In this document: positions 14,716-44,536 of the stretch, one piece after another | Position numbering within the stretch: the first letter of the stretch is position 1 | Layout: each line of letters begins with the position of its first letter | Source: an uncultured virus (IMG/VR IMGVR_UViG_3300033066_001794) | Taxonomy: Duplodnaviria; Heunggongvirae; Uroviricota; Caudoviricetes | IMG/VR virus record: IMGVR_UViG_3300033066_001794 | DNA: 64,000 bases | Reading direction: 5' to 3' (one strand) | Translations under genes and position numbers: made by a program | The notes under the pieces: model-generated | What the model saw: the letters and a program-made list of their open reading frames with translations, nothing else | Database searches by the model: none | What the model was told of the DNA's origin: nothing

Positions 14716-14843
14716 AGCCTTCTCACAAGCAGGTTGCTATAATCATAACCTAATTGAAAAGGAGGGATTCCTGCTTGCTTGAAGGTTTATTTTAAATATT
14801 TTTTATTGTTTTCAATTTGGTTAATTATAGCGAAACAAATATA
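14716..14843 (-). promoter_or_regulatory. TATATTTG promoter plus conserved structured leader (copy A)
   Basis: AACCTTCAAGCAAGCAGGAATC...AACCTGCTTGTGAGAAGGCT; shared with 23381 and 44406. Confidence 0.85.
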
Positions 14844-14898
14844 ATACTATTTACTTTATTAAACAAGTTTATTTTACATTATTTAAAGTTCATGGTTT

Positions 14899-17800
14899 TT
14901 AATTTTCTTTTTCCACTGTTATTTTGAAACCATTATATTTTATGATAAATGGGTAAAATTCATATACGGGTATAAACGAATCATATCTATTTTCTGAAAT
15001 ATCTTTTTTATAAATTAAAATTATTGGATAGGTCGGTATATTATCAATTTTGTATTTCTCACCATTTATTTCTGCCATTAAATTACTATTAGACCCATCT
15101 TCGTTATAAGAATATGGCTTAAACTCAATAGTTTCTCCTGATGGAATAGTTACGTAAGCACTATTTCCTTTTGCTTTATAAATTTTTTTCATTTTTTAGT
15201 ATAATTTTTGACCTAATTTTTGTTCACACAATTTTATTAATTCTTTTCTAATCGGAATTATTTTTTCCTCATCAGCAACCTTATTTGTACAATCTAAAAG
15301 CATTCTCAATACACCAAAATCATACTCAGGGAACATAAATACTTTTAAAAACTCAATAGCTCCATCTAAATCATCTTTAATAATAAAGTTGTTTAAATAT
15401 CTGTATGCTACCTTCAGCCTTTCTGTTCCTGATGGATTTTCAATTGCAGGTTTAGAATGATATTCTTTAGAGGCATCTGATTTTACAATATACATGAAAA
15501 CGGATTCCATCCAAGATGAGTCAAAGCTTTTAATAGCACCGCTTTGAACTAATTCTTTAGCGTAATTCTTAGCATATTTCTCTAATGCGTCCTGCTTTTC
15601 CTTAGTTGTAATCGTAATCCCTCTTTCTTTTTCAGAATTTTCTATTTCACTATGCATAATTTGACCGTATTTTGAACTGCAAATATAACAATAAAATTGA
15701 GATTAATATCAATAATAAGTTGAATTGGCAGTATTTTTAACAATTATATTTATAATTAGATATAATTTCAAAAGAATCAGAAGTCTTTTTAAAAGGAATT
15801 CCAACCATCATAACTCCATTCTTATCTTCAGTGAAAATATAATCTTTACCAACGAACCATTCTTCTCCTTTTATGTCGTGTAAAATCAATCCTTTATTAT
15901 TTTTCAGAACAATTGGATAAGCCCAAATAGGAATCATTAGCGTTTTGTTTCTCCAATTAACAAAACCTAATTGCTCTAGTTGTTCTTTACTGAATTTAGT
16001 AAAGTCACATTTATCGAATTCAGAGGTGAGCATAATTAATGCTTCATCAATTTTATTTTTTATTGATTGAATCGGTTCATCTTGAATGTTTATAAATCCA
16101 CTGATAATTCTATTAGCAAAAATAGAAGAATATCTTTGGAATATCTTCATGTATTCTTCAGTAGAATATTCTTTAGGAAATGGAGATGAAAAGAGAGGAG
16201 TAAATAACCATTCTAATTCTTCAATAGCTTTTTGTTCTTCTATTCTATCGTCATCATCATTGGTGTCAACTTCTACTTGGTTATCCACTTTTTTATTATC
16301 TGAAACGTTATTTTTAATCTCACCTTGTTTCAGTAGATTAGTTGCTTCTTGTTCTTTAATTCTTTTAACATGGTCTAACCAACCATCAATATTTGATTGC
16401 GAAAATATTTCCATATCAGTTATTGTTAGATTAGCTTGTATAGCATTAACTAGTCCGTTAGGAGTAGGAATCGAGAATCCCAAGTTTTGAACAGAAAAAC
16501 TTAATGATAACCATACAAACTGATATGGTTCTTCTTTATCAAAACGTTCTGTTAATTCTATATTATATGTTAAGTTTTGATTTGGATTGTTTTGAATTTT
16601 GTTTATAGCACCTTGTATTAATGCGTTAATATGATTTCTTCTATCTGTTGATAGATTGTTCATAGCTAATTCAACTTTTGTATCGTTATTCATAATGCTT
16701 TTTTTTATAAAATTATTTTAATTTTTTTCTTTAGGCAAAAGACCATATTCAATTAAAAACTCACGTCTCTTCATTAGTGCGTCTTCCTGCATTTTGTTTT
16801 TTAGATTCTCTAGTCTTTCCTTTTCTTTGTCTTCGTATTCTTTTAATTTTTTTACAACATCTTTGTATTCCTGATGTATATAAATTAGCCATTCAGATGG
16901 GTTATTAAAAAAGAATTCCTTTTTAATACCATTCTCATCAGTTGTGTATATTTTAGGTCTTGGAATAGATTTTGAAATCATCAAGTAATCTTTATTACTC
17001 TCAAATACATCGCTCATCTTTTTCATGACACTTATCTTACCAACAAGAATCTCATTAATTCTAACTCCATTATAATGCTCAGTAATGCATTTTGTTTTGT
17101 TTACATACTGTTCTTGCATTATGTCTTCTTTAGATTTTTTTGATTTGAATATTTTAGAAAGCATATTTTTATAATTTATTAAATAATAAATTTAGTGATT
17201 ATTTTAGAAAAATAAAAATTAATTAGATTTCTCGGCTACTTCAAACTGCGAACGTTCTTTTTCCGTCAACCACCACCAAATTTTATCACTATTTATAGAT
17301 ACTTTAAGTGTATCGCTTCCATCAAAATCATTTTGTTCAAAATCAGAAATTTCATAATAAAAAGGTTTTCTTTCTTTACCATCAGGTGTTTCTAAAATCA
17401 TACAAGCCTGAGAAACAACGAAACTTTTTATTCTAAAAATTTGTCCTTCATATTTAATTAGCTTACCAACATATTCATTTATTTCTTTTGGATACCAAGA
17501 CCATTTTTCCTCCATACTGTCAATGAAGCTATCAATGTTTTTAAACGCTCTTTCATAAGTTCGTCCTCCACACTCATAAACTTGAATATCGTTTAAAAAT
17601 AATTTTCCCGAACATGCTTTTCTGATTTCATCCCCACTTAATCCTGAACTTTTTAAATAATTACTTTCTTCAATTACTATTTTAAATGGTAATCTATGCC
17701 CATCAAATCCATAAATGCGCTCAGGGTTTTCTTTACTTCTAGCGTAAATTGTATTATCCTGTCTTGAATGAGGAAATTCACCATGAATAAGTTCATAGTC

Positions 17801-18187
17801 TTGCCCTGAAATTTTTACATCCATCCATGCTTTTGAGTTAACTTCTTTTCCTACACCCCAATTATAGTGTTGTGGTTTTTCAGGTTCTTTTTCTTTAGAT
17901 TCTTCCCGATTAGGTCTTGGCTCTATACCATAGTACTCATCCATGATAGCTGTACCTTGTTCGCTCGAAATTTTTGTTGTCAATATTGTTTTTAATTCAG
18001 AAACTATTTCCGAGTCTTGAGATTCAACTTTTTTAACTAAATCTGATTTATCTTCAATTAAATCATGAGCATGTAAAATATTTATTAAATCAATTGCTTC
18101 AGATTTAATTAATGTGTCAGAACTAACCGCATGAATGAAATCAGCAATAATTGTTCTCTCTTCTTTTGTAAAATCTATTTTCTCCAT
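14899..18187 (-). CDS. five hypothetical ORFs (14899-15192, 15196-15657, 15737-16693, 16718-17164, 17219-18187)
   Basis: ORF track; co-oriented. Confidence 0.65.
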
Positions 18188-18211
18188 TTTTTTGTTTTTA
18201 AAGTATTAAAA

Positions 18212-23368: not shown

Positions 23369-23487
23369 TATATTTGTAATGCATAATTGTATAACCATTA
23401 AAAATATTTTCACATTTAAACAAACCTTCAAGCAAGTAGGAATCCTTCCTTTTGGTTATGATTATGCAACCTACTTGCAAGAAGGCT
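23369..23487 (+). promoter_or_regulatory. TATATTTG promoter plus conserved structured leader (copy B)
   Basis: AACCTTCAAGCAAGTAGGAATC...AACCTACTTGCAAGAAGGCT. Confidence 0.85.
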
Positions 23488-23497
23488 ATTTTATAAA

Positions 23498-24184
23498 ATG
23501 GAAAGAATTGATGTTTTAAAAGCTAATGAGCATAAATTTTGGCTTCGTGTAAATAAACTTGGAGATAATGATTGTTGGTGTTGGAATACGTATATAAGTA
23601 AATCAGGATATGGTCAGTTTAAGTTTTGTTATTTAAGTAAATATTATCAATTTACAGCAAGTAGAGTGTCTTATGAACTTAAAGTAGGTCTAATACCTGA
23701 CGGGTTACTTGTCTGTCATAAATGCGATAATCCAAAATGTGTAAACCCAAAGCATTTGTTTTTAGGTACGCAAAAAGATAATATGGATGATAAGGTTAAT
23801 AAAAATAGACAGGCTCGTGCTGAAAACAATGGTCGTTCTAAATTAAATTGGGAAATCGTAAATGAAATTAGAAAATCATACCCTATAAATAAAAATACTT
23901 CTGAATTATCTAAAAAATATAATATTGATTCTTCAATGATAATCAATATACTAAAAGGTGAAAATTGGATTGATGAAAATTATAAACCAATACATATAGA
24001 GAAACAATTATTTAAGAAAGGACACACTATTAGTATGGTTATTTCTACGGAAAAAGTTATTGAAATAAAAAAGCTTATAAACGAAGGATTGTCTACTAAA
24101 AATATAAGCGAAATAACAGGGGTTAAGAATCAAAAAATAAAAGATATTAAAAGAGGTGTTGCATATTTTAATATTAAGTTGTAA
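23498..24184 (+). CDS. HNH homing endonuclease with C-terminal HTH repeats
   Basis: CWCW..GYG..VCHKCDNPKCVNPKHLFLGTQKDN. Confidence 0.9.
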   Translation: MERIDVLKANEHKFWLRVNKLGDNDCWCWNTYISKSGYGQFKFCYLSKYYQFTASRVSYELKVGLIPDGLLVCHKCDNPKCVNPKHLFLGTQKDNMDDKVNKNRQARAENNGRSKLNWEIVNEIRKSYPINKNTSELSKKYNIDSSMIINILKGENWIDENYKPIHIEKQLFKKGHTISMVISTEKVIEIKKLINEGLSTKNISEITGVKNQKIKDIKRGVAYFNIKL

Positions 24185-24195
24185 ATTTGTACGTA

Positions 24196-24433
24196 TTCTC
24201 GTTTTATCCTTTTGGATAATGAGTTTTTAAGGAAGGTATGTAAGACTCGGCTTTCGAATGCCGAATTCTCCACTAAATCTTTAGATTTATCCTGTTAAAA
24301 TATATGGGGATTAGCGGTTTTGATTGCATAATGGATGTAAGAATTAGAGGGTACAAAGTCTTAACTGACAATAATTTAAAACTAGCTGCTTAATCTTCCC
24401 TAGTGGGGAACATTCTCAGCCCTCGAAAGAGGT
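24196..24433 (+). ncRNA. ssrA: circularly permuted (two-piece) tmRNA
   Basis: T-arm + 3' acceptor ATTCTCC-A (to 24272) lies upstream of 5' acceptor GGGGATT (24306); G3-U70; TTGCATA/TATGTAA helix; tag 24367-24393 DNNLKLAA*; outer ends approximate. Confidence 0.85.
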
Positions 24434-27020: not shown

Positions 27021-27091
27021 CCGTAATAGTTTAGTCGGTAAAACAATAGATTTGTAATCTATATTCGAGGGTTCGATTCCTTCTCACGGCT
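27020..27091 (+). tRNA. tRNA-Thr(TGT)
   Basis: Cloverleaf; ATAGA-TTTGTAA-TCTAT; GTTCGATTC. Confidence 0.9.
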
Positions 27092-27154
27092 CAAAAAGAT
27101 TCCTCCCCATAAAAGCAGATATAGTGCGGGGACTTGCAGCAAGGAATCTTATAT

Positions 27155-27227
27155 TGCAATATAGCTCAGGTGGTAGAGCGTTTGGTTCATATCCAAAATG
27201 TCGAAAGTTCGAATCTTTCTATTGCGA
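27155..27227 (+). tRNA. tRNA-Met(CAT), probably elongator
   Basis: TTTGG-TTCATAT-CCAAA. Confidence 0.85.
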
Positions 27228-27280
27228 CAGTTTTAGTTCTTTGAAATATTAAAAATATCATTCGGGTTTTCCTGAATTGA

Positions 27281-27591: not shown

Positions 27592-27601
27592 AGTATTAAA
27601 T

Positions 27602-27674
27602 TGGAAATTAGCTCATTTGGTAGAGCAGCACCCTGATAAGGTGCAGGTGTCAAGTTCGAAACTTGAATTTCCAA
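27602..27674 (+). tRNA. tRNA-Ile(GAT)
   Basis: GCACC-CTGATAA-GGTGC. Confidence 0.92.
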
Positions 27675-27688
27675 CGTTAAAAATATAG

Positions 27689-30777: not shown

Positions 30778-33700
30778 ATGAAAGTAATCACATCAGATGT
30801 AAAAGCTAAGATATTTGCTCAATACATAGGGCAAATATTTATACATAGATTTCTAACTCCTGCTGTTGTTGAGCCTAGTGACTTATTACAAGTTACATAC
30901 ACAACTTGTTCTAAAATACAAGAAGACCATTGTTTGTTTTCAGGTATTCAGGTTGTATTAAAGTCATTACAAAATATTTCTGATGAAGATGCTATTGAGG
31001 TAGCTAAATATTTGAATTGGGGGAGAGATATTATAAAAAGGAGGTTGAGTGGAGATATTAGGGAAGACCAAAATATAGATGACCTTAGACAAACATATAT
31101 TAGAGTTGGCAAAGAATCAGTCATGATTTTCTTGGGTAAATTAGTCCCTTCAGTTATTACTTCACCTTTAGAGTGTGCTAATTGCTTTAATTTTTTACAG
31201 TCAAAAGGTTACGCACTTCCATATATGGATTATTCTGTCGAAGATTTAGTTGAACTTGGTATTTATAAATTAAAATAAAAAACAAAAATCATGAGCAAAG
31301 AATTTAATGAAATCATAAAAAAGTGTTTGAACACTAAGAAAATTCCTAAATCTGAATTATTGCTAAAATATAATGAGGAAGATATTTTTCAGATTAAATC
31401 AGATAAAAAACCTAAATCTATTAAGTCAAAAAAAACTAAGTAAAAATGAGCCAAGATTTAAGAGATTTAAACCTCCATACTGATGAAAACGGAAAAGTTT
31501 GGTTAAAAGGTGAAGATGGTAAATTGCTTACTGATGAAAGAGGTAGGAACATACCTGCTAGTCAAGGTAGAAAAATAAATGATAGTAGTGGTTTTACAAC
31601 ATACGATACATCTCAAGGACATTGTGCTTTATGTGGGGATTTATATTGCAGAGGAGGATGCTTCAAATAATATGGAAAACGCAATTCAAACAAAACATAA
31701 CTTAGACTTCCAAGTTGCAGAAAGTCCTTACAGCGTTGTTGGTAAAAAACATATGCTATTCAAAGTAGGCACTTGTCATGGTCAATGGGGAGATACGGGA
31801 GATAGTTACTTCATTCTTTCTGTGATGAACGATGAAATAGGAAACGGACATTTAGATGATGTTTTCGAATGGTTTGAATACTCAGCTAAACGTGATGGTA
31901 AAAATCTATTAGTTCTTGAATGTATGAACAAAAATTTCCATACTCATTTAGTAACTAAACGTGGATTCTTAGCTTTAGATGATGAGCAAAATAATTGCAT
32001 TAAAATCTTCAATGAAGATAAATACAAAATACTACTTAAAGAAGGAAATGGATTTATTGATAAAAAAACTTTAAAAAAATGAAATACATAATCAGTTTAA
32101 TTATAATTGTTACTTTTTTTAGTTGCAATCCACATCCTGAAGGCGATTCGAATGAATATAAAAATGGAGACTTCACAATTAAAACAATTGATAGTTGTGA
32201 GTATATCGAATATGATTATGGATATGGTGAACAGAGAGTTTATTCTATAACTCACAAAGGAAATTGTAAGTTTTGTTCGAAAAGAAATAAAAAGTAAAAA
32301 TGGAAGGATTTTGTAAAGGCGATATTTGTAATCGTAATGAGTGTCAAGGTGTAATTTCCGAATACGAAAAAGAAGGAAGTTGCAGTTGCCACATTCATCC
32401 TCCATGTGGATATTGTGAAGAGCCTAATGCTTATTGTGAAACATGTGGTTGGGATGCAAAAGAAGAGCGTGATGAGTTAGATAAAAAGAGACGTGAAGTT
32501 GTAAAAAGTAATGAAGCTTACTATGAAAAACAGAATAAAGATTTTGCAGAAGCTAGAGATTTATTCTATAAAAAGTTTAGAGGAGAAATACCTGCCGAAA
32601 AATTAGAAATACGTTCTGAGTCACATACACATTTTTCAATGAAAAAAATAGGAGTTTTTCCTGTTGGCTCTGAAACTCGTGAAAGTATTCTACCTAAAGT
32701 ATTAGGTACTTTTGGAGGTAGGTTCGCTAGGTTTGATGATTATTGTTTTGAATATATTGCATACACGGATTAAAAAATAAATAATGAAAGACGAAAAAGA
32801 ATTAGTAGTATTCCCTGATGATGAAATTGCTGCAAAAAAAATGACAGTAACAGGATGGGTAAGTCGTAATGGTAGATTTTATGGCTCTGATGAACGTACT
32901 GCTCGTCATGATGGTTCTACTCATAATAAATGTGAGTGTGGGAACAAGGTAACTAAAGGTTGGACTAAATGTGATTTTTGTATAAGTAAATCGGCTGTAG
33001 AAAGATATAAAGCTTATACTTTTCAAGAGTGGGATGGTAAACAGCCTGTTTATTCTGAGAACTATAGTAAATATTTTTATAATATTGATGAGATTGATGA
33101 TTTTTGTGAAGACTCAGAAGTTGACCCAAAAGACCTTATGCTTGTAATTTGCGATTCAAATTATTTGGATAAGATTGACAGTAGTATTTGGGAGGATAAA
33201 TTACCTGAAGATGGAGATATTCCAAAAGAACTACAAGATAAACTAAATGAGTTAAATCAATTTATTAAAACTTTACCTGCTATTAGTTATTCTCCATCAA
33301 AAATTAGAACCGAGTATAAAATTGAAAATAAATAATCATGGATGATAAAGTAAAAAAAATATTAGAAAAGAAATTTGGATATGATTTCGAGAGTGATTGG
33401 TTCACAGATGAAATACTAACTTTAGTTGATGATGTTATTGAGGCTACAAAAGAATCAATAGATGAAGTGGAATTAAGTTATGAAGAAAAAGTTAGTATTT
33501 ATGAAAAAGCAAAAAGAATAGTTGCTTCTGATTTAGCTTGGAACGAAAAATTTGATATGATTTTCTCGAAAGAAATATCACGTAAAATCGATTTTGATTA
33601 TTATTATCCTGATGGCGATTATGATGAGGATGTAATAGCTTTCATGAATGGATTTGATGAGTATATGAAGAAACAAGAAATTATTAAAAATCAAATAGGA

Positions 33701-35510
33701 TAATTATGTCAAAGAAAAAATGTAAAACATTAACAATTAAAGAAAGAGAAGAAAGGCAAGCTTTTTTGGATAAATATAATGAGTTTGACAAATGGCTTAG
33801 TTCTATTGGATTTAGAGGGGGACATTATTGGAAAGAAAGTTCTACCTATCAGGATATTCACTATTCAGATTATGATAAATACATTGACTCTCTTTATTCA
33901 GTTGAACATTTTATTAATGATACAATTTTGTTTTCAGTTAGATTCATAAGAGATAGATACAAACATAAATTCATGTTTGTAGGAGGTATAGGTGCGCATT
34001 CTGAATTATATTCTTTAGAAGAAACAAAAGAATTAATTTTATCTGAAGTAAGAAAGCTTCGAGATGAAAAATTGAAAGATTTGAAAAAACTTGAAAATAT
34101 TTAAAAAATTAAATTAAAAGAAAACAAAATGGAAAAGCAATTCGGTGATTTATCACAATTCAAAGGAAGAGATGTGGAACTTTTTAGAAGTTCTGATTTA
34201 AAAAACACTGCTATTTACTTCACAGATGGAGAGTATGAATATAGAGAAAAAGCAGCCGAATATTTTGAGTTATTACGATTTGGATTAGAAGGCGGAGACC
34301 ATCAAATCTATATCAGATTCCCTAAAACTGATTATTTTGTGGAAATGATTGAAGGGGGATTTGGCTCAGGAAGAGGGGATATGATGGATGCACAAGGAAA
34401 GAATGTATGGGAAGATAAACATAAATCACCATTCAGAATATACTCACATGGTAATAATTTAATACTTTTAATTGGAAGAGATGATTGGACACCTGAATTT
34501 AACTTCATGAAAAAAGCAGCAAGTTATGACAAGGGAAATCCATTTAATAGTAATTATCCAATTGAAACGTGTTATAATATTCATCAGATAGAAGAAGCTT
34601 TATCTATGAAGTTTTTGAAAATACCTGAAGATGTTAGAAGAATTCAATATTGCTTTAAAACAAAAGATGAAAATCCTAAATACTTTTTAGTAGATTCACC
34701 TGCGTATAATGTTCGATATAACAATCATAGATTTTTTATTATTGAAAATGAAATCCCAAAAGAATTTGAAATTAAAAAGTTTACTAGATACAGAGATGGC
34801 GGAACAACTATCATTACTTTAATTGATGAAAATGGCATTGAGCATAAGTTCTTTTCTCCACAATCAATGTTTGGTAAAACACTAGTTGAAAAATGGGATG
34901 AAGAAGAATTGATTGAAGCAACAGAAGAAGAAAAACAAAAACTAGCTACTCTTCTTGAATTAGAGTTAGAACCTGTTTTATCTGAGGAGGATTAAAATGC
35001 AAAAAGAATTTGATAACGAAAACAGAAGTCGCTACTATGGTTTAAGAGTAGGTGATATTGTCGAGCAAAAAGCATTTGGAACTTCGTCTAAAGGAGAAGT
35101 TATTGGATATGGCTTCTTGGATAATAATCGTGTTTATGTTCGCTTAGAATCAGGTGAAGAAACTGATTTTATAGCTGAATGGTGTGAAATAATTAAAAAG
35201 GTAGAGGATGGAGAAGGTATTTCAGAATAACGGATGTATGTTCGTGGGCAAAAGAGTTTTCATTAACGTTTCAGATTACAATTGGCTAAAACAATTTGGA
35301 GTGACTAAAGAAAAAATATTTAACCGAAGTAGATACACTATACTGCAAGGCATAGTAACAGATTTTACAGATAGAGAACTTAAAATTCTTTTAAGAGATA
35401 ATAATGGTTTCGAAAAAGATAATCAAGAGTTTGTATTTAGTCGTGATAAATTATTAGCTTATGAGGGTTATTCTAATTTTGAAGTTTTAGGTAAATGGAT
35501 TGAAATTTAA
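30778..35510 (+). CDS. operon-like run of about 12 hypothetical phage ORFs
   Basis: ORF track (30778, 31446, 31671, 32079 lipoprotein-like, 32300, 32784, 33338, 33706, 34129, 34997, 35208); TATATTTG promoter near 30734. Confidence 0.65.
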
Positions 35511-35728
35511 AAACAAATAATAAACTAAAAACAGAAAAACAATGCGTGTAGTAGCTGAGTGGTGTACTATAATTAAAAAAGTAGAAGATAAAAACTAAAT
35601 AAAAAAAATGGGACATTTGATGATTATGTGCATTCCTTTATGTATGGCAGTTGTTTTATTGATTGCTTCATTGATAACAAACTATTGGTATAATAAAAAA
35701 ACAAATAATAAACTAAAAACAGAAAAAA

Positions 35729-36781
35729 ATGATTGATTTTACAAGAAGTGAATCCAACGAAATAGCAATACACTACGTTGGTAACAAAGGATTAGGTGAA
35801 GAGATGGTCTTCGCAAAAACACCGAATAAAATAGGTGATGAATGGGTTAAAAACACTATTTACCATTTCTTTTTTAATACATTTAAATCGGATGTTTATT
35901 TTCAATTCAGAAAGCCTGATGCGATTAAAATATACGATGTTCAATCGTATGTAAGAGATGTATTTGATGACCCATCAACTATGTTTGATAAATCTCAAAA
36001 AATAGCACAGATACTTTATGACCAAAGTAATCATCCTAAAATAAAAGGTGGTGATTTCTTTATGACGTATATCAAAGATTGCGTTGTAGATGGAGAGCTT
36101 TGCGATGCTATTGGAATCTTCAAGTCAGAGAACAAAGAAACATACTTGAAATTAAATCAAAACTTAGATAGCTTTGATTTAGAAGCAGAAAATGGAATTA
36201 ACATCAACAAGTTAGATAAAGGATGTTTAATATTCAATATTGATAGCGATAAAGGATACAAAATAAGCATCGTTGATAATAGCCATAAAATAGCTCAGGC
36301 AGCTTTGTATTGGACAGAAGATTTCTTAGGTGTGAAATTACGTGAAGATAGATTCTTTCATACAAACAACATGTTAGCCACAATTAATAATTTCTGTGAA
36401 GAAGTTTTAACTCAGGAAAACAATGTTGAGCCTGTTGACCAAATGATGATTAAAGATAGGTCACTAAACTACTTTAAAGATAAGGATAGATTTAACCTAG
36501 AAGAATTTCAAGCAGAAGTTTTATCTCAACCTGAATTAATTGATAGCTTCAAGGAATACCGAACAATTAGTGAAGAAGTTAACCATGTAAAGAATGATAT
36601 TGAAGACTTCGAAATTTCAGCAACAGCGGTAAAGAAACAAGAGAAGTATTTCAGAGGAATCATAAAATTAGATAAAAACTTCCATCTTTACATTCATGGA
36701 AGACATGACTTAGTTCAAAAAGGTTTTGATGAAGAAAAAGGAATGAAGTTTTACAAGGTGTTTTACAATAACGAAGAGTAA
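35729..36781 (+). CDS. nucleoid-associated protein (YejK/NdpA-like, Bacteroidota type)
   Basis: IHYVGNK..HPKIKGG..AIGIFKSENKE..GININKLDKGCLIFN..IKLDKNFHLYIHG. Confidence 0.85.
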   Translation: MIDFTRSESNEIAIHYVGNKGLGEEMVFAKTPNKIGDEWVKNTIYHFFFNTFKSDVYFQFRKPDAIKIYDVQSYVRDVFDDPSTMFDKSQKIAQILYDQSNHPKIKGGDFFMTYIKDCVVDGELCDAIGIFKSENKETYLKLNQNLDSFDLEAENGININKLDKGCLIFNIDSDKGYKISIVDNSHKIAQAALYWTEDFLGVKLREDRFFHTNNMLATINNFCEEVLTQENNVEPVDQMMIKDRSLNYFKDKDRFNLEEFQAEVLSQPELIDSFKEYRTISEEVNHVKNDIEDFEISATAVKKQEKYFRGIIKLDKNFHLYIHGRHDLVQKGFDEEKGMKFYKVFYNNEE

Positions 36782-36783
36782 TT

Positions 36784-38190
36784 ATGTTTCAAGTTAAAGT
36801 TTTAGATACTACATACAGGCACAATACTGTCATTATTTGTGTTCCAAAAGACCTAAAGAACCACATCGGAAGTACTGATGTGGTTTTAAAGGAAATTCAT
36901 GGACAGCTAACAATAAGAGCTGCTACTATTATGGATACTAAAACTTTGAAGATTGATAGTATGAGTAAAATAACCTTAACCTGTGATAACGCAAAAGATT
37001 ATTTAGGTGAATGGATTTTAGAGCCTGATGGAGATTTATATTGGTTTTACAGAAACACAAATAACTAAAAAATAAAAAATGGAAAGTTTTAAAATTGAAG
37101 TTGACGCAAAAGATTTAAAAGAAAAATTTAACGCTATATTAAGTAAGGTAATTGAAGATTCTCTTACTAAAGAAAAGGAAAGTATTCAGGAGTCTATAAA
37201 AACATATTTCCATAAAAGTTTTTTTAATGATAAAATAACTCAATTTGATAGAGCTTTGGATTGGCAAATAGAAAGTGTTTTCAGAGAAGGAGTAGGTAAG
37301 GCAATGGAAGAACTCAACTTCAAAGAGTTGATAGCTGAAAAAGCAAAAGAAATGCTTTCTAATAGTGATTTAATTAAAGACTTAGTTGATTCTAAAGTTA
37401 GAAGTTCATTGGGTTTGCCTAAAAAGGATTAAAATGAGTGCAGATAACGGAATATACATAGCTAAGTTTCCTGATGGATATAGAGTGATTTATACGCAGT
37501 GTATAGATAACATAGACTTCTATCCTGAAGGCACTAAACAAAGAAAAAAGGAACTTAAAAAATACTTCGGTAAAAGTAAGTTATTTGAAACAGAAGATAG
37601 TGCCTATAAAGAAGCTAAATTGATGGAAAAAGAATTCACTAAGGATGGTGACTATCTTGAATATGGAGTTTGCTATATTGGAGAGTACGAAAGTTTTAAT
37701 TGAAAATTAAATGGAAAATATTGAATTAATATTTAAACCAAAAAATGATTCCGACTACAGAGTTATATATATCGAATATCAGAATGGGATGCCACATTCT
37801 GCAATAATAGAAGATGTTTTGCATGGATATTTAAGGTCTTATGATTTTGGTTTTTTTGAAGATGACAAAAAGGATGTGTTTCACTATGATAGTGGAGGAG
37901 GTGGAGATAAAAATAAATTACAAGCTCCTAAATATCAATCTACGTATAGGGGTGGAGCATATTGGTTACACCCAACAGCTAAATTTAAAGGGCGTGTTGT
38001 AAATTGTAGAAAACTTGCAAAACCAATTGAAATAGAAACATATTGGGGTAAAAGCATAAATCCGTTTGAACATTCGGACGAAGTAAATCACTATGAATAT
38101 TGTTCTGATTGCGGCAAGAATTTTCGAGACCATTGTGAAGAGCATCAATATTATGATGAAAAAGAAAATTTAAAATATTACAATCAGTGA
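36784..38190 (+). CDS. four hypothetical ORFs
   Basis: ORF track. Confidence 0.6.
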
Positions 38191-38780
38191 AAACAGAGTT
38201 AGAAGTTTTACAAGATTTATTCGGAAAAGAAACTAATATTTTTTCATCAGAAGATGTAGTTAAGGCAATACGTGTTTTTGCCAATCAATTTAGGTGGGTT
38301 AAAACAACTTGCGGAAAATATATTGAGTTTGATGATTTTGATTACGAAGTTCTTAGACAACAAGACGTTTGGTTTGATGAACAGAGACAAGCAGTAATGG
38401 CACTTTGGATTTCAAAAGAAGGAAAAAGAGTTGTAGCTCCTGTTGCTAAATTATTACTTGAAGCAGAAGGTAAAACGGTAATTCATTATAAAGATAGGAA
38501 TCCATTAAATTTAAGAAGAGATAATCTTGAATTAATAAGCCATCAAAAAGCTCACTACAAAGAGAAAAAACAAAGAACAGCTAATGGTAATGTTCCAAGT
38601 AGTATTTATAAAGGAGTCAGTTGGAATAAGTTCGCTAACAAGTGGTCTGCGTCAATAAAATTAGACTACAAGAAAAAACATTTAGGTTATTTCCTTAGCG
38701 AAGAAGATGCTGCTAAAGCATATAATGAAGCTGCTATTGAAAATTGGGGAGTCGAATATTCAGAATTAAATGTATTGTAA
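38187..38780 (+). CDS. HNH-AP2 domain protein (HNH degenerate)
   Basis: IHYKDRNPLNLRRDNL; SIYKGVSW..W.ASI..HLGYF..EEDAAKAYN. Confidence 0.85.
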   Translation: MKTELEVLQDLFGKETNIFSSEDVVKAIRVFANQFRWVKTTCGKYIEFDDFDYEVLRQQDVWFDEQRQAVMALWISKEGKRVVAPVAKLLLEAEGKTVIHYKDRNPLNLRRDNLELISHQKAHYKEKKQRTANGNVPSSIYKGVSWNKFANKWSASIKLDYKKKHLGYFLSEEDAAKAYNEAAIENWGVEYSELNVL

Positions 38781-39321
38781 AATGAAAAAAAGAATAAAAT
38801 CATTAAAGGAATTAAAAGAATGGAATGCTAATCCAACAAAAGAATTACCAATCGTATATGAATGGTTTATGGATTGGTTTTTCAAAGATGTTTTAATGAA
38901 AGACAAATTTAAATTAGCTAAAGATGCTCATGAAACTCACGTTGAATTCTGTATGATATGTAATAATTTCACAAGAGAGCAGGCTATTGAAAGAGTAAAT
39001 AGAAATATTGATTATTATTCAAGTTACTCGGTAAAATGGGAGAATAAATTGGATAAATATTTTCCTGAAGTTAGACGTATTTTAAATTAAAAAAATAAGA
39101 TGAAAAAAGAAGACGTTAAAGAATTAAGACTTGGTTTATACCGTATTTATTGGAAGAAACAAGCAGGAGGAGGAACTTCTGTAGCCTCTATAGGCATGTT
39201 ACATGATGGGCAAAAATGGATTGCCCCTACAAATTGGACTGCAAAAGTTGGAGAGAATCCAACAGCATTCGGTAAGATTTGGGATAAAGTTAAAAAAGTA
39301 GAATTAATTTGCGTCGAATAA
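38770..39321 (+). CDS. two hypothetical ORFs
   Basis: ORF track. Confidence 0.55.
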
Positions 39322-39409
39322 TTTTATTTCGCTCATTTTCAATTTAATATGATTTTAATTAAAAATAAATTTTGCGGATAAATAAATAATCCTTTACTTT
39401 GCATCCATT

Positions 39410-39478
39410 ATGAAAAATTTATCACTACATAGTTCGTTGTATCTAAGCCCAAAAGGTTCAGGTGACTTTCTATTGTAG
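39410..39478 (+). CDS. leader peptide 2 (MKNLSLHSSLYLSPKGSGDFLL)
   Basis: Follows TTTG..TTACTTTGC promoter-like motif; codons match cluster 2 tRNAs. Confidence 0.8.
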   Translation: MKNLSLHSSLYLSPKGSGDFLL

Positions 39479-39504
39479 TTAAACATATTTGTTTACATGA
39501 TAAG

Positions 39505-39534
39505 AACCCTGAACTGAAAAGTTTGGGGTTTTTT
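39505..39534 (+). terminator. attenuator terminator 2
   Basis: AACCCTGAAC/GTTTGGGGTT + TTTT; GGTTCAGG (39455) can sequester the left arm. Confidence 0.85.
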
Positions 39535-39566
39535 GTTTTACATTAATTCGTTCTTTAAAAATATAT

Positions 39567-39654
39567 GGTGAATGTGCGTGAGTGGTCGAAACGAGTAGAT
39601 TGTGGTTCTACTGATATGTAAATATCCACGAGGGTTCAAATCCCTTCATTTACC
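39567..39654 (+). tRNA. tRNA-His(GTG) with long variable arm
   Basis: G-1/C73; GTAGA-TTGTGGT-TCTAC; GATAT-GTAA-ATATC arm. Confidence 0.85.
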
Positions 39655-39659
39655 CAAAA

Positions 39660-39743
39660 GGAGAGTAAACCTATCAGGGTAGGCGCAACCTGCTAAGTTG
39701 TCGGCTCGGTTAAACGAGTGTGGGTCACGACCACTGCTCTCCG
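39660..39743 (+). tRNA. tRNA-Ser(GCT)
   Basis: GCAAC-CTGCTAA-GTTGT; long arm; G73. Confidence 0.8.
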
Positions 39744-39769
39744 CAAAAAAAAAGTTCTTTAAATAAATT

Positions 39770-39852
39770 GGAAGGAGGCGACCATTGGTGGTCAACAAGA
39801 CTTGAAATCTTGAGCGGTCAGAAATGACAGGGTTCGATTCCTACTCTTTCCG
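39770..39852 (+). tRNA. tRNA-Ser(TGA)
   Basis: CAAGA-CTTGAAA-TCTTG; long arm; G73. Confidence 0.85.
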
Positions 39853-39860
39853 CAATAAAC

Positions 39861-39944
39861 TGAGATACGCTAGAGTTGGAGAGCTAGGTTGGTCTGTAAA
39901 ACCAATGTCTTATGACTGATTCGGTTCGATTCCGAATATCTCAA
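39861..39944 (+). tRNA. tRNA-Tyr(GTA)
   Basis: TTGGT-CTGTAAA-ACCAA. Confidence 0.88.
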
Positions 39945-39949
39945 CAAAT

Positions 39950-40032
39950 ACCCGTATGGTGGAATGGAATACACATAGGTCTTAAAAACCTACGCCCTTT
40001 GAGGATTGCAAGTTCAAGTCTTGTTACGGGTA
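39950..40032 (+). tRNA. tRNA-Leu(TAA)
   Basis: TAGGT-CTTAAAA-ACCTA. Confidence 0.9.
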
Positions 40033-40047
40033 CTAAAAAAATAAAGA

Positions 40048-40398
40048 ATGAAAACATATAGAAAAAACAGAACCCAATGTGCTAAATTATTTAGTGTAAA
40101 CGGAATTTCAATGTTAGGTTTTTTAGTTGGAGAACAGGATAACAAACAAACTTTTGAAACATTAAAAGGAGAAAGAGTAAATGTATCTACTATTAAAAAC
40201 TCAGAAGGTAAAATAGAGGATATTGGCGATGAAATAGTTGAAATAACACTTGCTTATAAAAGAGTTACAAATACAAAAACAGGGATAATAACAACAACTC
40301 CATTTGGAAATGTTATAACTAAAAATAGTGTTGGAGGTAAAATTATGCGAACTCCGAAAGATGTTTTATGTACAAATAAATTAATTAAAGTCAATTAA
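40048..40398 (+). CDS. hypothetical protein in tRNA cluster 2
   Basis: ORF track. Confidence 0.6.
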   Translation: MKTYRKNRTQCAKLFSVNGISMLGFLVGEQDNKQTFETLKGERVNVSTIKNSEGKIEDIGDEIVEITLAYKRVTNTKTGIITTTPFGNVITKNSVGGKIMRTPKDVLCTNKLIKVN

Positions 40399-40408
40399 AA
40401 AAATATAT

Positions 40409-40489
40409 GCGAGCATGGTGGAATGGCAGACACACATGATTTAGAATCATGCGCAGAAATGCATGAGGTTTCGAGTACCTCTGCTCGTA
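40409..40489 (+). tRNA. tRNA-Leu(TAG)
   Basis: CATGA-TTTAGAA-TCATG. Confidence 0.88.
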
Positions 40490-40493
40490 CTTT

Positions 40494-40964
40494 TTATTTT
40501 GAATAATATTCAAGTCTTAATTCATCAGCAATCTCATTTGCTACTTTAAATTTTTCTTGATTTTTATTTCCATTTCCGTATTCATAATGACACTCAGTAC
40601 ATTTAATCATTATGTTTCTTTCATCAAGTCGTAGAGATGGATAAGCTCCTTTAGGAAGTAGATGACTCATATAACTAACATTAAGTTCATCTCCTAGTTT
40701 TTTGTCACAGCAGTTACATATATGCTTCCGTTCGCTCCATATCTTCACAAACATTTCTCCCTCACCTGAAGCTTTTCTTTTATAAACTATTGCAGTACGT
40801 TTTAATTGCTTTTGAACTTTCTTTGGCTTGTCTTTATTTTTCTCAGCAGACTTTTTTCGTTGTTCAATTGAGTAGTGATAGCCACATAAAGGCGGTCTTT
40901 TTTTAGCTAATTGTTTTTCTTTACCATCATTACAAAACTTGCAAATACCTTTCATTATTATCAT
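40494..40964 (-). CDS. NinG/HNH-like nuclease
   Basis: CNCC..SHLLPKGAYPSLRLDERNIMIKCTECH. Confidence 0.65.
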   Translation of the reverse strand: MIIMKGICKFCNDGKEKQLAKKRPPLCGYHYSIEQRKKSAEKNKDKPKKVQKQLKRTAIVYKRKASGEGEMFVKIWSERKHICNCCDKKLGDELNVSYMSHLLPKGAYPSLRLDERNIMIKCTECHYEYGNGNKNQEKFKVANEIADELRLEYYSK

Positions 40965-41113
40965 AATGCTAATATAAGTTTTTTAATTGATATTAAGTGT
41001 CGTAAAGTATCTTTAAGTGTTTTAATTAACTTTAATCGTTTTTATTTAGTAGTAATCATTTATAATGACTAAACTTTTTTATATAGTCGTATATTTGTGA
41101 AAAACAAGTAAAA

Positions 41114-41446
41114 ATGAAAAAGACAACAGCAACAGCAAAAAAAAAAGGTTTTGTATTAACCTCTAATAAATACAAAGATGAACATGGTGAATATGCTTTT
41201 ATAGAGCCTACTGATAAGAAAAAATATTTTTATAAAAAATCAATTTTTGTCATTAAATCATTTCTTGGTAAATCAACATTTGAAGATAAAAAAGTTAAAT
41301 GTATTCATTGTGATAAAAAATTTAATCTAAGTGAATATAAGGCTGTCATTTGCTTGAATCACATTAATAGTGAAATAATAGGAAGTGAATTTATAGTTTG
41401 TAAACATTCTCCAAAATGCGATGGTAGTTTGATTGATTTTTTTTGA
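41114..41446 (+). CDS. hypothetical Zn-binding protein
   Basis: CIHCD..CKHSPKCDGSLID. Confidence 0.6.
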   Translation: MKKTTATAKKKGFVLTSNKYKDEHGEYAFIEPTDKKKYFYKKSIFVIKSFLGKSTFEDKKVKCIHCDKKFNLSEYKAVICLNHINSEIIGSEFIVCKHSPKCDGSLIDFF

Positions 41447-41505
41447 TTAAAAAAATAATTGAAAATAAATTTGGTAGATTGAAAAACATTTCTTTACTTT
41501 GCATC

Positions 41506-41598
41506 ATGAAAACAACAAACGTATACTTTCAACAATTTTTCCCTCAACAACCGCAGTTTAGATTGCGATTGTCAGGAAGTTCTTGTCCGTGTGCGTGA
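41506..41598 (+). CDS. leader peptide 3 (MKTTNVYFQQFFPQQPQFRLRLSGSSCPCA)
   Basis: Directly after TTACTTTGC promoter-like motif; F/Q/P run matches cluster 3 tRNAs. Confidence 0.8.
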   Translation: MKTTNVYFQQFFPQQPQFRLRLSGSSCPCA

Positions 41599-41623
41599 GA
41601 AAATATATCACAAACAAACAATG

Positions 41624-41653
41624 AAGACCCTGACTAATTATCAGGGTTTTTTT
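41624..41653 (+). terminator. attenuator terminator 3
   Basis: AAGACCCTGA/TCAGGGTTTT + T run; GTCAGG..TCTT (41571-41584) can pair with the left arm. Confidence 0.85.
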
Positions 41654-41686
41654 ATGTTCAAAAAATAGTTCTTTAAAATAAAATAA

Positions 41687-41762
41687 CGCAATGTACGGAA
41701 GTTTGCTTTTTCCGACCAAGTTTGGGACTTGGGAAGCGCAGGTTGAAATCCTGCCATTGCGA
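41687..41762 (+). tRNA. tRNA-Pro(TGG)
   Basis: CCAAG-TTTGGGA-CTTGG. Confidence 0.85.
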
Positions 41763-41768
41763 CAACAT

Positions 41769-41841
41769 CAGGGTATATATCAATTGGTAGATTACTCGCT
41801 TTGGATGCGAGAGGTTGTAGATTCGAGTTCTGCTACCCTGA
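41769..41841 (+). tRNA. tRNA-Pro(TGG), second divergent copy
   Basis: CTCGC-TTTGGAT-GCGAG. Confidence 0.82.
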
Positions 41842-41889
41842 CTTAGGTAATAATAATTTAACAACAAACAATAGGCTGAAAAGCCTTAT

Positions 41890-41963
41890 GTGGTGGTAGC
41901 TGAGTTGGTTCAAGCGTCAGACTGAAAATCTGAAGTAGGTCGGTTCGATTCCGACACATCACA
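41890..41963 (+). tRNA. tRNA-Phe(GAA)
   Basis: TCAGA-CTGAAAA-TCTGA. Confidence 0.9.
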
Positions 41964-42009
41964 CTTGTTTTTTTTGTATATTTGTTTTCTGAAAATAAAA
42001 TATATGAAC

Positions 42010-42082
42010 TGCCTTATAGTGTAACTGGCAACACGCTTGATTTTGATTCAAGAGACTCTACGTTCGAGCCGTAGTGAGGCAA
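42010..42082 (+). tRNA. tRNA-Gln(TTG)
   Basis: CTTGA-TTTTGAT-TCAAG; U1-A72. Confidence 0.9.
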
Positions 42083-42114
42083 CTAATTAGTAGTAAATAA
42101 CATAAATTAATTGA

Positions 42115-42630: not shown

Positions 42631-42807
42631 TTATTTGTAAAGCTCCCAATCTGTGAGCCAATCGTAATCTCTCCTACCTATCCAAAATTCTTCTTCAGTT
42701 ACAGAAATACCATATTCAAAAACAAGCATATTATCTTTAATATACATGTACTCATAATACATGAATTTTTTATGTGTAACTTTTTTACCTTTCTTCAAGG
42801 CAACTAA
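42631..42807 (-). pseudogene. 3' part of a small gene interrupted by TnpB element 2
   Basis: LVALKKGKKVTH joins in frame to ITKAEI at 44609-44592. Confidence 0.5.
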
Positions 42808-42827
42808 GATAAAAATAACATTATAAA

Positions 42828-44399
42828 TCATACAAAGTTGTACAAAATTGTACTACTTTTTTGACTCATAAAATTACGTTCTGAAGACTTGGTTTTATCC
42901 AACTCCTGTCGGTATCTCAATCCCGACTTCTTGAAAAGTTTAAATGCCTCTACCCAAGTTGAAATATTTTTATTCTGAACATCCAAACCTAATCGGTACA
43001 TGGTGTCAAAATCGATTCCCTCAAGCTTTGGGTAGAAAAAACTTCCTCCAAGATATTTTGTGATGCCCCTTCTCGCAACTTCGATGGCAGCATTAACAGG
43101 GTCGAAAAAACCATGCTTTATATTGCCAATGAAACTGCTGTAACAGGCGTTCACCCCAATCAGTTTTATGCCGATTGTGTTACAATGTTTTTTAATTAAA
43201 TTTGTTGTTAACGTTCTGTGCCAAATGTTTAATGTTTGTCTGTTTGCCTCGTTAGCATTGTTATTCAAGAGTTCTTGCTTGAAAAATAAATCTTCAATGG
43301 CACAATTTGAAACTTTAAAATGAGCAGCAACTTTAAAAATATATTTCCAAACACAACTAATTTCATGAATACGTTTGTTGTTTTGTTTGATTTGTTTTTT
43401 ATCAGTTGAACTCAAATTTAATTTCGTGTTCAAACCTTTTAGCGAAATACATTCTTTATAAATTATTTTAAATGAATCATCCGAATCACTTAGTCTATCA
43501 ATGATTACAAAGGCAATGTATTCAGGATTCAAATCAAAAGCAATAAATCTTCCGATAATTTTACCTGCAATCATTCTTAATTCTTGCTCCTTAATCCACT
43601 TTTTATAACAATCTTTTCGTGCAGTCTTAAACTCTTTCGGAATATGTTTTAAATCTTTTTTATACTCATTTTTATCGAATGAAAAACCATTTAATTTTTC
43701 TTCATCAAATGAAATCCAAATATTATTATTATCAAGTTTAACTGAAATAGGTTGCTCACCAATCTGTTTCTGTAACTGAATTAATTGCTCATACTGATTT
43801 TTACTGCAATGAAATTCAATAGGCATTTTTACTCCATGTTTAGGTTTGAAAACAACTTTTTTATTTGTAAAATCAAAGTCAAATTTACGATTACCTTTAT
43901 TATTGGCTTCTCCTATCACCGAATAAGCTAAAATTCTATTTTCTTTAAATTGTAATTTTACTTTTTTGAGAAGTCTTTTTCTAATTCGATTATTTTTTTG
44001 ACCTTTAGTTTTATTGCTTAAAAAACTTATTTTTCTAATCAAAGCCTTAGTCCCAAAAACAATATCCTTTCCATTATTTGCTTGTAAATAAGCTATTTTT
44101 CGTATCACTTTATACTTGTGTCTTTTACTTTCAAACTCAGTAATAGCAAGCAATTCTTCTAACTTTTTTTCTTTTTTAAGTGTGTTAGTTTCAAACTGAG
44201 CAAGTTTCATTTTAACTTCAACAGTACAACTTTGGTATTCCCAACTATCAACATTAAATTTTTCACGAACTTTTTTTATGAAATTTTCATCAACACTTTG
44301 GTCAAAATTAAAATACAATTCATGAAATAATCCTGAATAATTTCGGCAATATTCCGAAACATCATATTCATTTTTTGTTTTTAATTTTAGTGTTATCAT
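42828..44399 (-). CDS. tnpB: TnpB/Cas12f-like RuvC nuclease (likely start MITLKLK)
   Basis: FIAFDLNP, CAIEDL, YSSFIGN..FDPVNAAIEV; clear paralog of 13011-14705. Confidence 0.75.
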   Translation of the reverse strand: MITLKLKTKNEYDVSEYCRNYSGLFHELYFNFDQSVDENFIKKVREKFNVDSWEYQSCTVEVKMKLAQFETNTLKKEKKLEELLAITEFESKRHKYKVIRKIAYLQANNGKDIVFGTKALIRKISFLSNKTKGQKNNRIRKRLLKKVKLQFKENRILAYSVIGEANNKGNRKFDFDFTNKKVVFKPKHGVKMPIEFHCSKNQYEQLIQLQKQIGEQPISVKLDNNNIWISFDEEKLNGFSFDKNEYKKDLKHIPKEFKTARKDCYKKWIKEQELRMIAGKIIGRFIAFDLNPEYIAFVIIDRLSDSDDSFKIIYKECISLKGLNTKLNLSSTDKKQIKQNNKRIHEISCVWKYIFKVAAHFKVSNCAIEDLFFKQELLNNNANEANRQTLNIWHRTLTTNLIKKHCNTIGIKLIGVNACYSSFIGNIKHGFFDPVNAAIEVARRGITKYLGGSFFYPKLEGIDFDTMYRLGLDVQNKNISTWVEAFKLFKKSGLRYRQELDKTKSSERNFMSQKSSTILYNFV

Positions 44400-44405
44400 A
44401 AAAAG

Positions 44406-44536
44406 AGCCTTCTTACAGATAGGTTTGCACAATCAAAAACTCATGAGAGAAGAGATTCCTATCTGCTTGAAGGTTTATTTTAAATATTTATTTTTGTGAT
44501 TTTCATGAGTTTAATTAATTGTGCATTGCAAATATA
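44406..44536 (-). promoter_or_regulatory. TATATTTG promoter plus conserved structured leader (copy C)
   Basis: AACCTTCAAGCAGATAGGAATC...AACCTATCTGTAAGAAGGCT. Confidence 0.85.

Follow-up and report, generated by a model that had tools for sequence, protein, structure and literature searches.

An uncultured phage of the Caudoviricetes (IMG/VR record IMGVR_UViG_3300033066_001794) carries, in a stretch of 64,000 nucleotides referred to here as the window, three nuclease genes that share a leader. An initial annotation made from the sequence described the leader before two TnpB-like genes (P0001 and P0003) and an unrelated HNH gene (P0002). Direct reading and alignment confirmed all three copies and the layout given there; they occupy 14716-14831(-), 23381-23487(+), and 44406-44524(-). 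Two covariance models (CMs; R1 and R2), used alongside exact-pattern scans, together yielded four extra copies. The seven copies come from four sources: the window (three copies, w1 to w3), a 170-kb phage contig called G001 (two copies, L118 and L264), a metagenome contig (one copy, L215), and a fragment of a distant phage called G005 (one copy, L282). G001 is a close syntenic relative of the window, with 66 of the 99 window proteins matching it, mostly at 75-98% identity. The leader is ~125 nt long, and in 7/7 copies it is flanked by a TATATTTG box upstream and the ATG of a nuclease gene downstream. It is a structured RNA motif with a conserved fold and covarying helices.

Read from its 5' side, the motif consists of the TATATTTG box, 4 nt, and a variable segment X, which begins with GC and starts at the same G in all copies, 5 nt past the box. 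X is followed by an A-rich linker ending in TTTAAA(A/C)(T)AAAC. The middle part is made up of CCTTC-AA-G-CAnnnAGG, AATC with a pyrimidine-rich run (L2), a segment called X', and AA(A). The 3' part is made up of CCTnnnTG-n-nA-GAAGG, CT, 6-10 nt, and ATG. This distance of 6-10 nt had been reported before; counted after GGCT, it agrees with the 12, 12, and 8 nt that separate GAAGG from ATG in the window copies. Over all copies, 8-13 nt separate the ATG from the hairpin S2, of which GAAGG is a part.

CCTTC and GAAGG are mutually complementary and form the outer 5 bp of S2, a point absent from the first description, which did quote the stems of the window copies correctly (CAAGCAGG/CCTGCTTG, CAAGTAGG/CCTACTTG, and CAGATAGG/CCTATCTG). 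S2 is a 14-bp interrupted hairpin in which a 2x2 purine loop separates an outer helix of 5 bp from an inner helix of 9 bp. X' sits in its 28-36-nt loop, next to the pyrimidine-rich stretch. X' was said to be complementary to its own X over 15-23 nt, and RNAduplex, applied to the 5' segment and the hairpin loop of the window copies, gives 22, 15, and 20 bp with energies of -21.9, -16.2, and -25.5 kcal/mol. The X:X' helix (P1) measures 15-22 bp in 7/7 copies, and in each copy none of 1000 shuffles of the 5' segment matched the observed energy. The strands follow the order X, S2a, X', S2b in all seven copies, where S2a and S2b are the two arms of S2. In other words, the two helices interleave, and both covary, which gives the leader the topology of an H-type pseudoknot.

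Further evidence for the fold comes from covariation, which was counted over 22 pairs (8 in P1a and 14 in S2) of the seven-copy alignment. In this alignment, 95.5% of the cells are paired and 7 pairs (15 cells) show changes on both sides. The covariation score is 0.325 compared to 0.162 +/- 0.026 for shuffled alignments, none of which (0/500) reached the observed value, and slid controls were 25-40% paired with at most two covarying pairs. Within S2, 99% of the cells are paired and both sides changed in 5 of the 14 pairs. The unpaired cells of P1a arise because w1 and L264 carry matched extra base pairs that fall out of register in a fixed-column alignment. P1a stays paired despite substitutions and despite matching insertions in both strands (Table 1), and the distal half of P1 pairs too, even though the copies form at least four groups of unrelated sequence there. 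L264, which precedes a GIY-YIG gene, has (G)CUCUC(U)/(A)GAGAG(C) in place of the otherwise invariant CCUUC/GAAGG, and its inner stem has become GAAAUAGG/CCUAUUUC. GAAGG is present inside the S2 3' arm in 6/7 copies, and its replacement by GAGAG with a compensating change in the seventh argues that the pairing is selected and not a Shine-Dalgarno-like word. To which strand does the structure belong? On the sense strand, 7 of the 109 P1 pairs are G:U, with one conserved U:G in each copy among them, and S2 has further G:U cells. The CMs score the sense strand at 88-147 bits and the antisense strand at 22-32 bits. The G:U pairs and the far lower antisense score indicate that the structure belongs to the sense RNA. 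Outside the helices, the A-rich linker and L2 form conserved loops.

The leader motif is rare. With CM filters off, exactly three sites were found in the window (E 1e-19 to 3e-30; the next sense-strand match had E 0.9). Six copies were found in the window, G001, and the L215 contig combined (235 kb), and the other matches there were the reverse strands of the same loci. A pattern scan of a viral collection matched at least 116 loci; among the matches listed, four had GGAATC and none was a leader. Further viral scans gave one true leader among two loci, one among six (already known), and three among five (one new). A metagenome scan gave one true leader among 71 loci, and a scan of GTDB genomes gave none among 21. 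The motif had been called unassigned, and Rfam 15 bears this out at gathering and permissive thresholds: only tRNAs were matched in the window at the gathering score, leader regions at E up to 10 matched only eukaryotic snoRNA and miRNA models at chance level and no ribozyme or small RNA (sRNA) family, and L118 and L215 had no match at E 0.1. A blastn search of INPHARED with the P0001 region returned no match, and searches for close protein relatives, with the G001 TnpB and with a conserved window protein as queries, recovered nothing beyond G001 itself. The literature searched gives no account of a leader common to nuclease cassettes; the supplements of one motif catalogue (PMC10690425), which possibly list it, lay outside that search. 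We rate the motif as new, outside any described family, and akin to the leader structures of T4 homing-endonuclease genes.

All seven copies precede nuclease genes, which represent three TnpB/Cas12-like lineages, one HNH, and one GIY-YIG homing endonuclease. The leader is therefore shared by unrelated nuclease families, as originally proposed, with GIY-YIG as an added type of cargo. P0001 and P0003 belong to a family in which D320, E398, and D462 are invariant in 5/5 sequences and form a D..E..D triad. The top Foldseek matches were Cas12k, Cas12f, Cas12g, and RuvC (E 3e-8 to 1e-3), for a model with a mean pLDDT of 66.9 and a global TM of ~0.25. The two proteins matched TIGR01766 at E 6e-4 and 1e-3, both under its cut-off, and had no Pfam match, including OrfB_IS605 and the zinc-ribbon TNB domain. 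The family retains the TnpB 'P-x-Y-T/S-S' motif and RuvC-III, without a CxxC zinc ribbon between them. In hhalign only the V-P-Y-T-S motif was aligned with TnpB (E 0.08, with one sequence as the target), a result that we set aside as a test, a profile search of PDB sequences found nothing, and PF27229, seen in a protein atlas on <60% of the cluster members, is a lead only. Genes for an IS607-type serine recombinase (MerR-HTH+Resolvase) lie directly upstream in 2/5 P0001 relatives. Together, the triad, the weak TIGR01766 matches, the Cas12/RuvC fold matches, and the IS607-type neighbours agree with the TnpB-like label, and we place P0001 and P0003 with moderate confidence in the TnpB/Cas12 superfamily, with a RuvC fold carrying the triad. 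The ORF after L282 has 19 longer relatives of ~470 aa, of which 17 carry PF07282 and 6 of these also PF01385.

One possibility raised by these cargos is that the nucleases use the leader as an RNA cofactor, a 5' guide or scaffold like omega RNA in which X is the variable targeting segment. Five of the seven cargos are of the TnpB/Cas12 type, which is RNA-guided in known systems, and X is the most variable part of the motif. However, X is complementary to its own X' and not to the flanks, and the longest stretch that any X matches elsewhere, in the window or in G001, measures 11-14 nt. In HNH_3 and GIY-YIG endonucleases, it is the protein that recognises the DNA. Furthermore, the canonical TnpB gene of G001 has ~220 nt of non-coding DNA on its 3' side, the usual place of omega RNA, and the leader is absent at 5/5 loci with P0001 relatives. 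A cofactor role is thus very improbable. Twelve nt in the P0001 coding region (window 14631-14642) are exactly complementary to the first 12 nt of its own X; no counterpart was seen in the other copies, and the match is probably due to chance. The P0003 cassette ends 20 nt past the stop, so any omega-like RNA of this gene would fall within the 3' end of its ORF.

Comparison with G001 revealed how the leader and its cargo are gained and lost. At four cassettes, the flanks are 87-96% identical in nucleotide sequence, and the other phage either lacks the cassette or has something else in its place. At site 1, the flanking genes are 6 nt apart in G001 (junction 73603/73607). At site 2, the leader, the HNH gene, and 192 nt are swapped in, and the homology with G001 on the left stops exactly at the TATATTTG box. 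At site 3, window 42811-44634 stands in place of a 340-nt G001 segment with another small ORF. The P0003 cassette is inserted in codons 5-7 of a 66-aa gene. A metagenome contig joins 42807/C/44593, restoring the G001-like reading of the 66-aa gene, and the G001 junction is uninterrupted. The GIY-YIG cassette of G001 (26359-27276) starts 27 nt before the box and ends 7 nt past the stop, and the equivalent slot in the window holds an HD-domain ORF. L118 and L215 have common DNA from 24 nt before the box onward and unrelated DNA upstream of it. The cassettes are bordered 24-98 nt upstream of the promoter box at four sites, or at the box itself, and not at the leader; no shared right-end element or matching repeat was found among them. 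Judged by these alignments, the unit gained or lost is a cassette of promoter, leader, and nuclease ORF between conserved genes.

The leader always stands at the left end of inserted cassettes, which is what a DNA-level signal would show, that is, an end for recombination or transposition, or a site related to homing, at which nuclease cargos are mobilised or swapped through inverted repeats acting in single-stranded DNA. The end of the site 2 homology at the promoter box is compatible with recombination in shared promoter/leader DNA, and leaders of unrelated cargos within one genome are 72-83% alike. However, the borders at four sites are upstream of the box, there is no matching right-end repeat, and the sense-strand G:U pairs and the strong strand asymmetry are features of an RNA. 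The size of the S2 loop is presumably also unlike that of IS200/IS605 end hairpins. HNH, GIY-YIG, and TnpB genes move by differing routes. HNH and GIY-YIG genes home by double-strand-break repair, with no need of an end signal (PMC13565253). These points speak against the mobilisation signal that the initial annotation offered as an alternative, and a role of the leader in DNA is decidedly unlikely.

Table 1. Leader copies, their parts, cargos, and cassettes. Coordinates refer to the window unless another source is named.
Feature	Position	Strand	Evidence or remark
Site 1 insertion: 97-aa ORF (14899-15192), promoter, leader, P0001	12986-15191	-	absent from G001
P0001, putative 564-aa TnpB/Cas12-like RuvC nuclease	13011-14705	-	
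TATATTTG box of copy 1, predicted promoter (-7 type)	14836-14843	-	same box and 4-nt spacer before all 7 copies
Leader 1 (w1), predicted 5' untranslated region (UTR) of P0001	14706-14831	-	CM match 122.7 bits, E 1e-24
X of copy 1, 5' strand of P1	14809-14831	-	pairs with X' over 22 bp at -21.9 kcal/mol
S2 5' arm of copy 1 (CCTTC-AA-GCAAGCAGG)	14770-14785	-	pairing and alignment
Pyrimidine-rich L2 of copy 1, 5' of X'	14761-14769	-	
X' of copy 1, inside the S2 loop	14736-14760	-	pairs with X
S2 3' arm of copy 1	14718-14733	-	12 nt from its end to ATG
Site 2 segment: leader, HNH gene, divergent 5' part of tmRNA-like gene	23377-24376	+	stands in place of 167 nt in G001
TATATTTG box of copy 2	23369-23376	+	common to the permuted-tmRNA promoter of G001
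Leader 2 (w2), predicted 5' UTR of the HNH gene	23381-23497	+	CM match 100.2 bits
Parts of leader 2	X 23381-23397; S2 arms 23425-23440, 23470-23485; X' 23453-23467	+	
P0002, HNH_3 homing-endonuclease-like gene	23498-24184	+	Pfam PF13392 E 8.5e-10; PHROG HNH endonuclease families
P0003 cassette, 1785 nt: 56 nt, promoter, leader, ORF, 20 nt	42808-44592	-	natural empty-site contig
P0003, 523-aa paralogue of P0001	42828-44399	-	38% identity
TATATTTG box of copy 3	44529-44536	-	
Leader 3 (w3), predicted 5' UTR of P0003	44400-44524	-	CM match 147.4 bits
Parts of leader 3	X 44503-44524; S2 arms 44458-44473, 44408-44423; X' 44427-44446	-	
Copy L118	G001:125627-125759		pattern scan of viral collection
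Gene after L118			canonical 389-aa TnpB (Pfam)
Copy L264, diverged	G001:26401-26531		CM R1 48.5 bits, CM R2 102 bits
Gene after L264			GIY-YIG + NUMOD3
Copy L215	1.7-kb metagenome contig		pattern scan
Gene after L215			TnpB with the same N-terminus as the gene after L118
Copy L282	start of 50-kb phage fragment G005		CM 87.7 bits
Gene after L282			ORF cut by contig end
P1a of w1, 5'/3' strand			GCUAUAAUU / GAUUAUAGC
P1a of w2, 5'/3' strand			GCAUAAUU / GAUUAUGC
P1a of w3, 5'/3' strand			GCACAAUU / GAUUGUGC
P1a of L118, 5'/3' strand			GCGCAAUU / GAUUGCGC
P1a of L282, 5'/3' strand			GCGUAAUU / GAUUACGC
P1a of the GIY-YIG copy, 5'/3' strand			GCGUAAAAUU / GAUUUUACGC
Promoters with the second leader word	30733, 55350, 21136, 15687, 9368	+, -, -, -, -	

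Two of the cassette sites hold features of their own. At site 2, the leader and HNH cassette lies between the TATATTTG promoter of a permuted two-piece tmRNA and the tmRNA gene itself (window 24223-24393(+); G001 64716-65002, or L272:4716-5002(-)). The G001 gene is called by ARAGORN with the tag GEVKLAA* and scores 52.2 bits with the Rfam model tmRNA_permuted, above gathering; the window allele scores 40.8 bits, under gathering, and is missed by ARAGORN. In its 5' two-thirds, the window tmRNA is a divergent allele, which would be expected if the G001-type allele is the target of the HNH protein. At site 1, a 101-nt direct repeat with 98% identity is present at 12662-12762 and 12874-12974. The original 5' end of a ParB-like gene persists there as a truncated fragment adjoining the P0001 insertion. 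The intact ParB-like gene (11896-12783) has a new start made from a 111-nt novel segment and the duplicate; the G001 copy begins 6 nt after its neighbour.

G001 also has 18 genes for DNA methyltransferases in a row (16 N6_N4_Mtase, one MT-A70, and one Dam) at ~77.8-115.6 kb (L272:17818 to L274:15643), with a phage-integrase-family gene after them.

TATATTTG boxes are common before genes in this phage, where they form an intergenic promoter-like word. The sequence TAnnTTTG is the -7 promoter consensus of Bacteroidota, from which transcription starts a few nt downstream. By this consensus, X would be the 5' end of the transcript. The cassettes occupy variable positions in a small lineage of large phages. 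The lineage is AT-rich, tRNA-rich, and nearly free of Shine-Dalgarno sites, which suggests a host of the Bacteroidota type. A Shine-Dalgarno-like word precedes only 11 of the 99 window genes, and three of the 11 are the leader genes. A typical start in the window is A-rich and unstructured; the leader genes instead have a helix and a U-rich spacer. Two other observations concern the same DNA. ARAGORN finds 25 tRNA genes in + strand clusters at 27020-42083, of which 19 score at or above the Rfam gathering threshold. A second leader word that recurs, (A)ACGGTCAAAT, is found 5-12 nt past TATATTTGCA boxes (Table 1) and is shortened to GGTCAAAT at 9368. This word may be an operator or a 5' UTR motif of another gene class.

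What does the leader do? Its position makes control of expression the most likely role. Our preferred reading, to which we assign a probability of about 0.55, is a portable 5' UTR with a cis-regulatory role: the leader would limit or gate the translation or processing of nuclease messages. The cassette leader would then be a 5' UTR with the first G of X as its probable transcription start. Positions from about -9 to -30 relative to the start codon would be helical within the S2 hairpin, and the 5'-terminal X would pair with X' in the S2 loop. A stable helix followed by a U-rich spacer should lower translation initiation, by the same logic as in T4 endonuclease hairpins, and the effect would be that a potentially self-damaging nuclease is kept low or limited to a time window. 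Release could come from a factor acting on the long X:X' duplex, with or without S2, as a long, sequence-free, and length-conserved helix at the 5' terminus suggests a duplex-recognising step. Our favoured guess is an RNase III-type cleavage, which would sever S2a from S2b. Alternatively, the X:X' duplex may do no more than stabilise the fold or the mRNA. Because the cargos are unrelated, the cargo protein is unlikely to regulate its own synthesis. Some other roles were considered and dropped. Upstream AUGs in X' vary in frame and length, with none in the GIY-YIG copy, which disposes of a leader peptide. The U-run after S2 is inconsistent among the copies, which disposes of an intrinsic terminator. 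Anti-Shine-Dalgarno mimicry by L2 (CCUCC) is seen in only three copies and without covariation, and a pyrimidine-purine triplex between L2 and the S2 3' arm likewise lacks covariation.

It is also possible that the leader forms two alternative folds. The pairing of X with X' could either lock a pseudoknot or compete with an extension of S2 by AAUC:GAUU as a two-state switch. GAUU of X' has two possible partners, AAUU of X and the AAUC that follows S2a, and none of the three words varies among the copies. Invariant words with competing pairings are what a switch requires. The nested alternative is near-isoenergetic: S2 extended by the invariant AAUC:GAUU gives -23 to -26 kcal/mol compared to -15 to -25 kcal/mol for X:X' alone. 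The initial annotation had proposed a pseudoknot or a two-state switch. The pseudoknot topology holds in 7/7 copies and the near-isoenergetic alternative exists, and energies alone do not discriminate between lock and switch. If the two helices coexist, the shortness of loop L3 (2-3 nt) should exclude classical stacking and force X:X' onto the loop end of S2, and the leader would form a rod of ~35 bp. L2 is 9-13 nt long and pyrimidine-rich.

The pairing of X from transcript nucleotide +1 in 7/7 copies also fits a different role, in which translation is not the controlled step. The leader could mainly be a 5'-terminal stabiliser or processing element that counters decay from a free 5' end, a cleaved-off sRNA, or a small self-cleaving ribozyme. 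The conserved A-rich linker and the pyrimidine-rich L2 loops fit a compact tertiary fold, and the strand order X, S2a, X', S2b may resemble that of nested pseudoknot ribozymes. However, the permissive Rfam search gave no ribozyme or sRNA match, and there is no terminator between the leader and the ORF in the three window copies. A simple stabiliser would need neither S2, nor conserved loops, nor an exclusive link to nuclease genes. We regard these roles as unlikely.

Several points weigh against the leader as a limiter of nuclease expression. The start codon itself is outside any conserved helix. Because Shine-Dalgarno sites are hardly used, textbook sequestration of a ribosome-binding site (RBS) is not directly transferable to this phage. 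If the two helices coexist, L2 would have to span a 15-22-bp helix, which seems sterically tight. The family is small (n=7), w3, L118, and L215 are close kin, and the alignments from which pairs were counted had been fitted to the S2 of the model. The leader is absent before an HNH-AP2 gene of the window (38187-38780), before its G001 orthologue, and before an IscB-like G001 gene. It is also absent at the 5/5 IMG/VR loci with P0001 relatives, whose upstream DNA was read (with CM searches on 3/4 records), which indicates that the leader is not required for nuclease function as such. The HNH_3+AP2 gene at 38187-38780(+) overlaps its neighbours, is 91% conserved in G001, has neither leader nor own promoter, and may be a domesticated nuclease.

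Selfish nucleases shape the mosaicism of phage genomes and the competition between phages, and to our knowledge it is only for a few T4 genes that the restraint of their toxicity is understood in detail. One RNA module common to RNA-guided TnpB/Cas12-like and protein-guided HNH and GIY-YIG nucleases points to a common and transferable control device. Furthermore, the device would operate in hosts that apparently initiate translation without Shine-Dalgarno pairing, where the rules of translational control are poorly known. A bolder extension of the control model, speculative and rather unlikely, is a portable 'licence' RNA. In this extension, a self-contained riboregulator with a pseudoknot, passed as a module between cassettes and perhaps representing a new class of ribozyme or a sensor that responds to a phage or host factor, would make expression of any nuclease cargo conditional on the state of the cell, such as late infection or co-infection by a competitor. 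The motif is small, strongly covarying, and supplied with natural compensatory variants, and is thus directly testable with reporters. If it proves to be a portable limiter of nuclease expression, it is a potential tool in Bacteroidota-type hosts.

How does the leader compare with known RNAs of phages and mobile elements? The omega RNA of TnpB lies at the 3' end with a flank-derived guide, and that of IscB (HEARO) is 5' and IscB-specific. Like the leader, omega RNAs are pseudoknotted structured RNAs tied to TnpB-type nuclease genes in mobile elements. Unlike the TnpB omega RNA, the leader is 5' of the ORF, and no X match exceeds 14 nt in the window or G001. Unlike HEARO, it has no IscB among its cargos (0/7), and the IscB-like gene of G001 (L269:12880-14217) has no leader CM match. 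This gene is on the + strand and encodes RRXRR (Pfam E 3e-56) and HNH domains. The leader also differs from omega RNAs in standing 5' of HNH and GIY-YIG genes and in having no Rfam model match.

Phage leaders that are processed or modulated by RNase III include the lambda N leader, the alternative structures of lambda cIII, and the T7 processing sites. These leaders resemble the present one in having a long imperfect 5' duplex and alternative conformations of similar energy. Cleavage or binding alters translation in them; they have no known sequence or family relation to the leader, for which a link to RNase III is our conjecture. The mRNA of T4 gene 32 begins with a 5'-end pseudoknot followed by an A/U-rich tract, which together form a translational operator bound by the gene's own product. 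The leader, too, would be a 5'-terminal pseudoknot of a phage mRNA, but its products are unrelated, so autoregulation of this kind is unlikely.

The closest parallel is found in the T4 homing endonucleases. RNA structures limit translation of I-TevI, I-TevII, I-TevIII, segB, and mobE, and the T4-family gene seg43(25) has a hairpin just upstream of its RBS (PMC2988022). The two systems have in common selfish phage nuclease genes, a stable RNA structure before the start codon, and a presumed role in restraint or timing. The T4 hairpins are gene-specific and sequester a Shine-Dalgarno site, whereas the leader is one 125-nt motif common to five protein families. The T4 hairpins are bypassed by a late promoter inside the hairpin, whereas the sole conserved box of the leader is upstream of X and both S2 arms in 7/7 copies. 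Finally, the leader has a second long helix that ties the 5' end to the hairpin loop, and it belongs to a phage that hardly uses Shine-Dalgarno sites.

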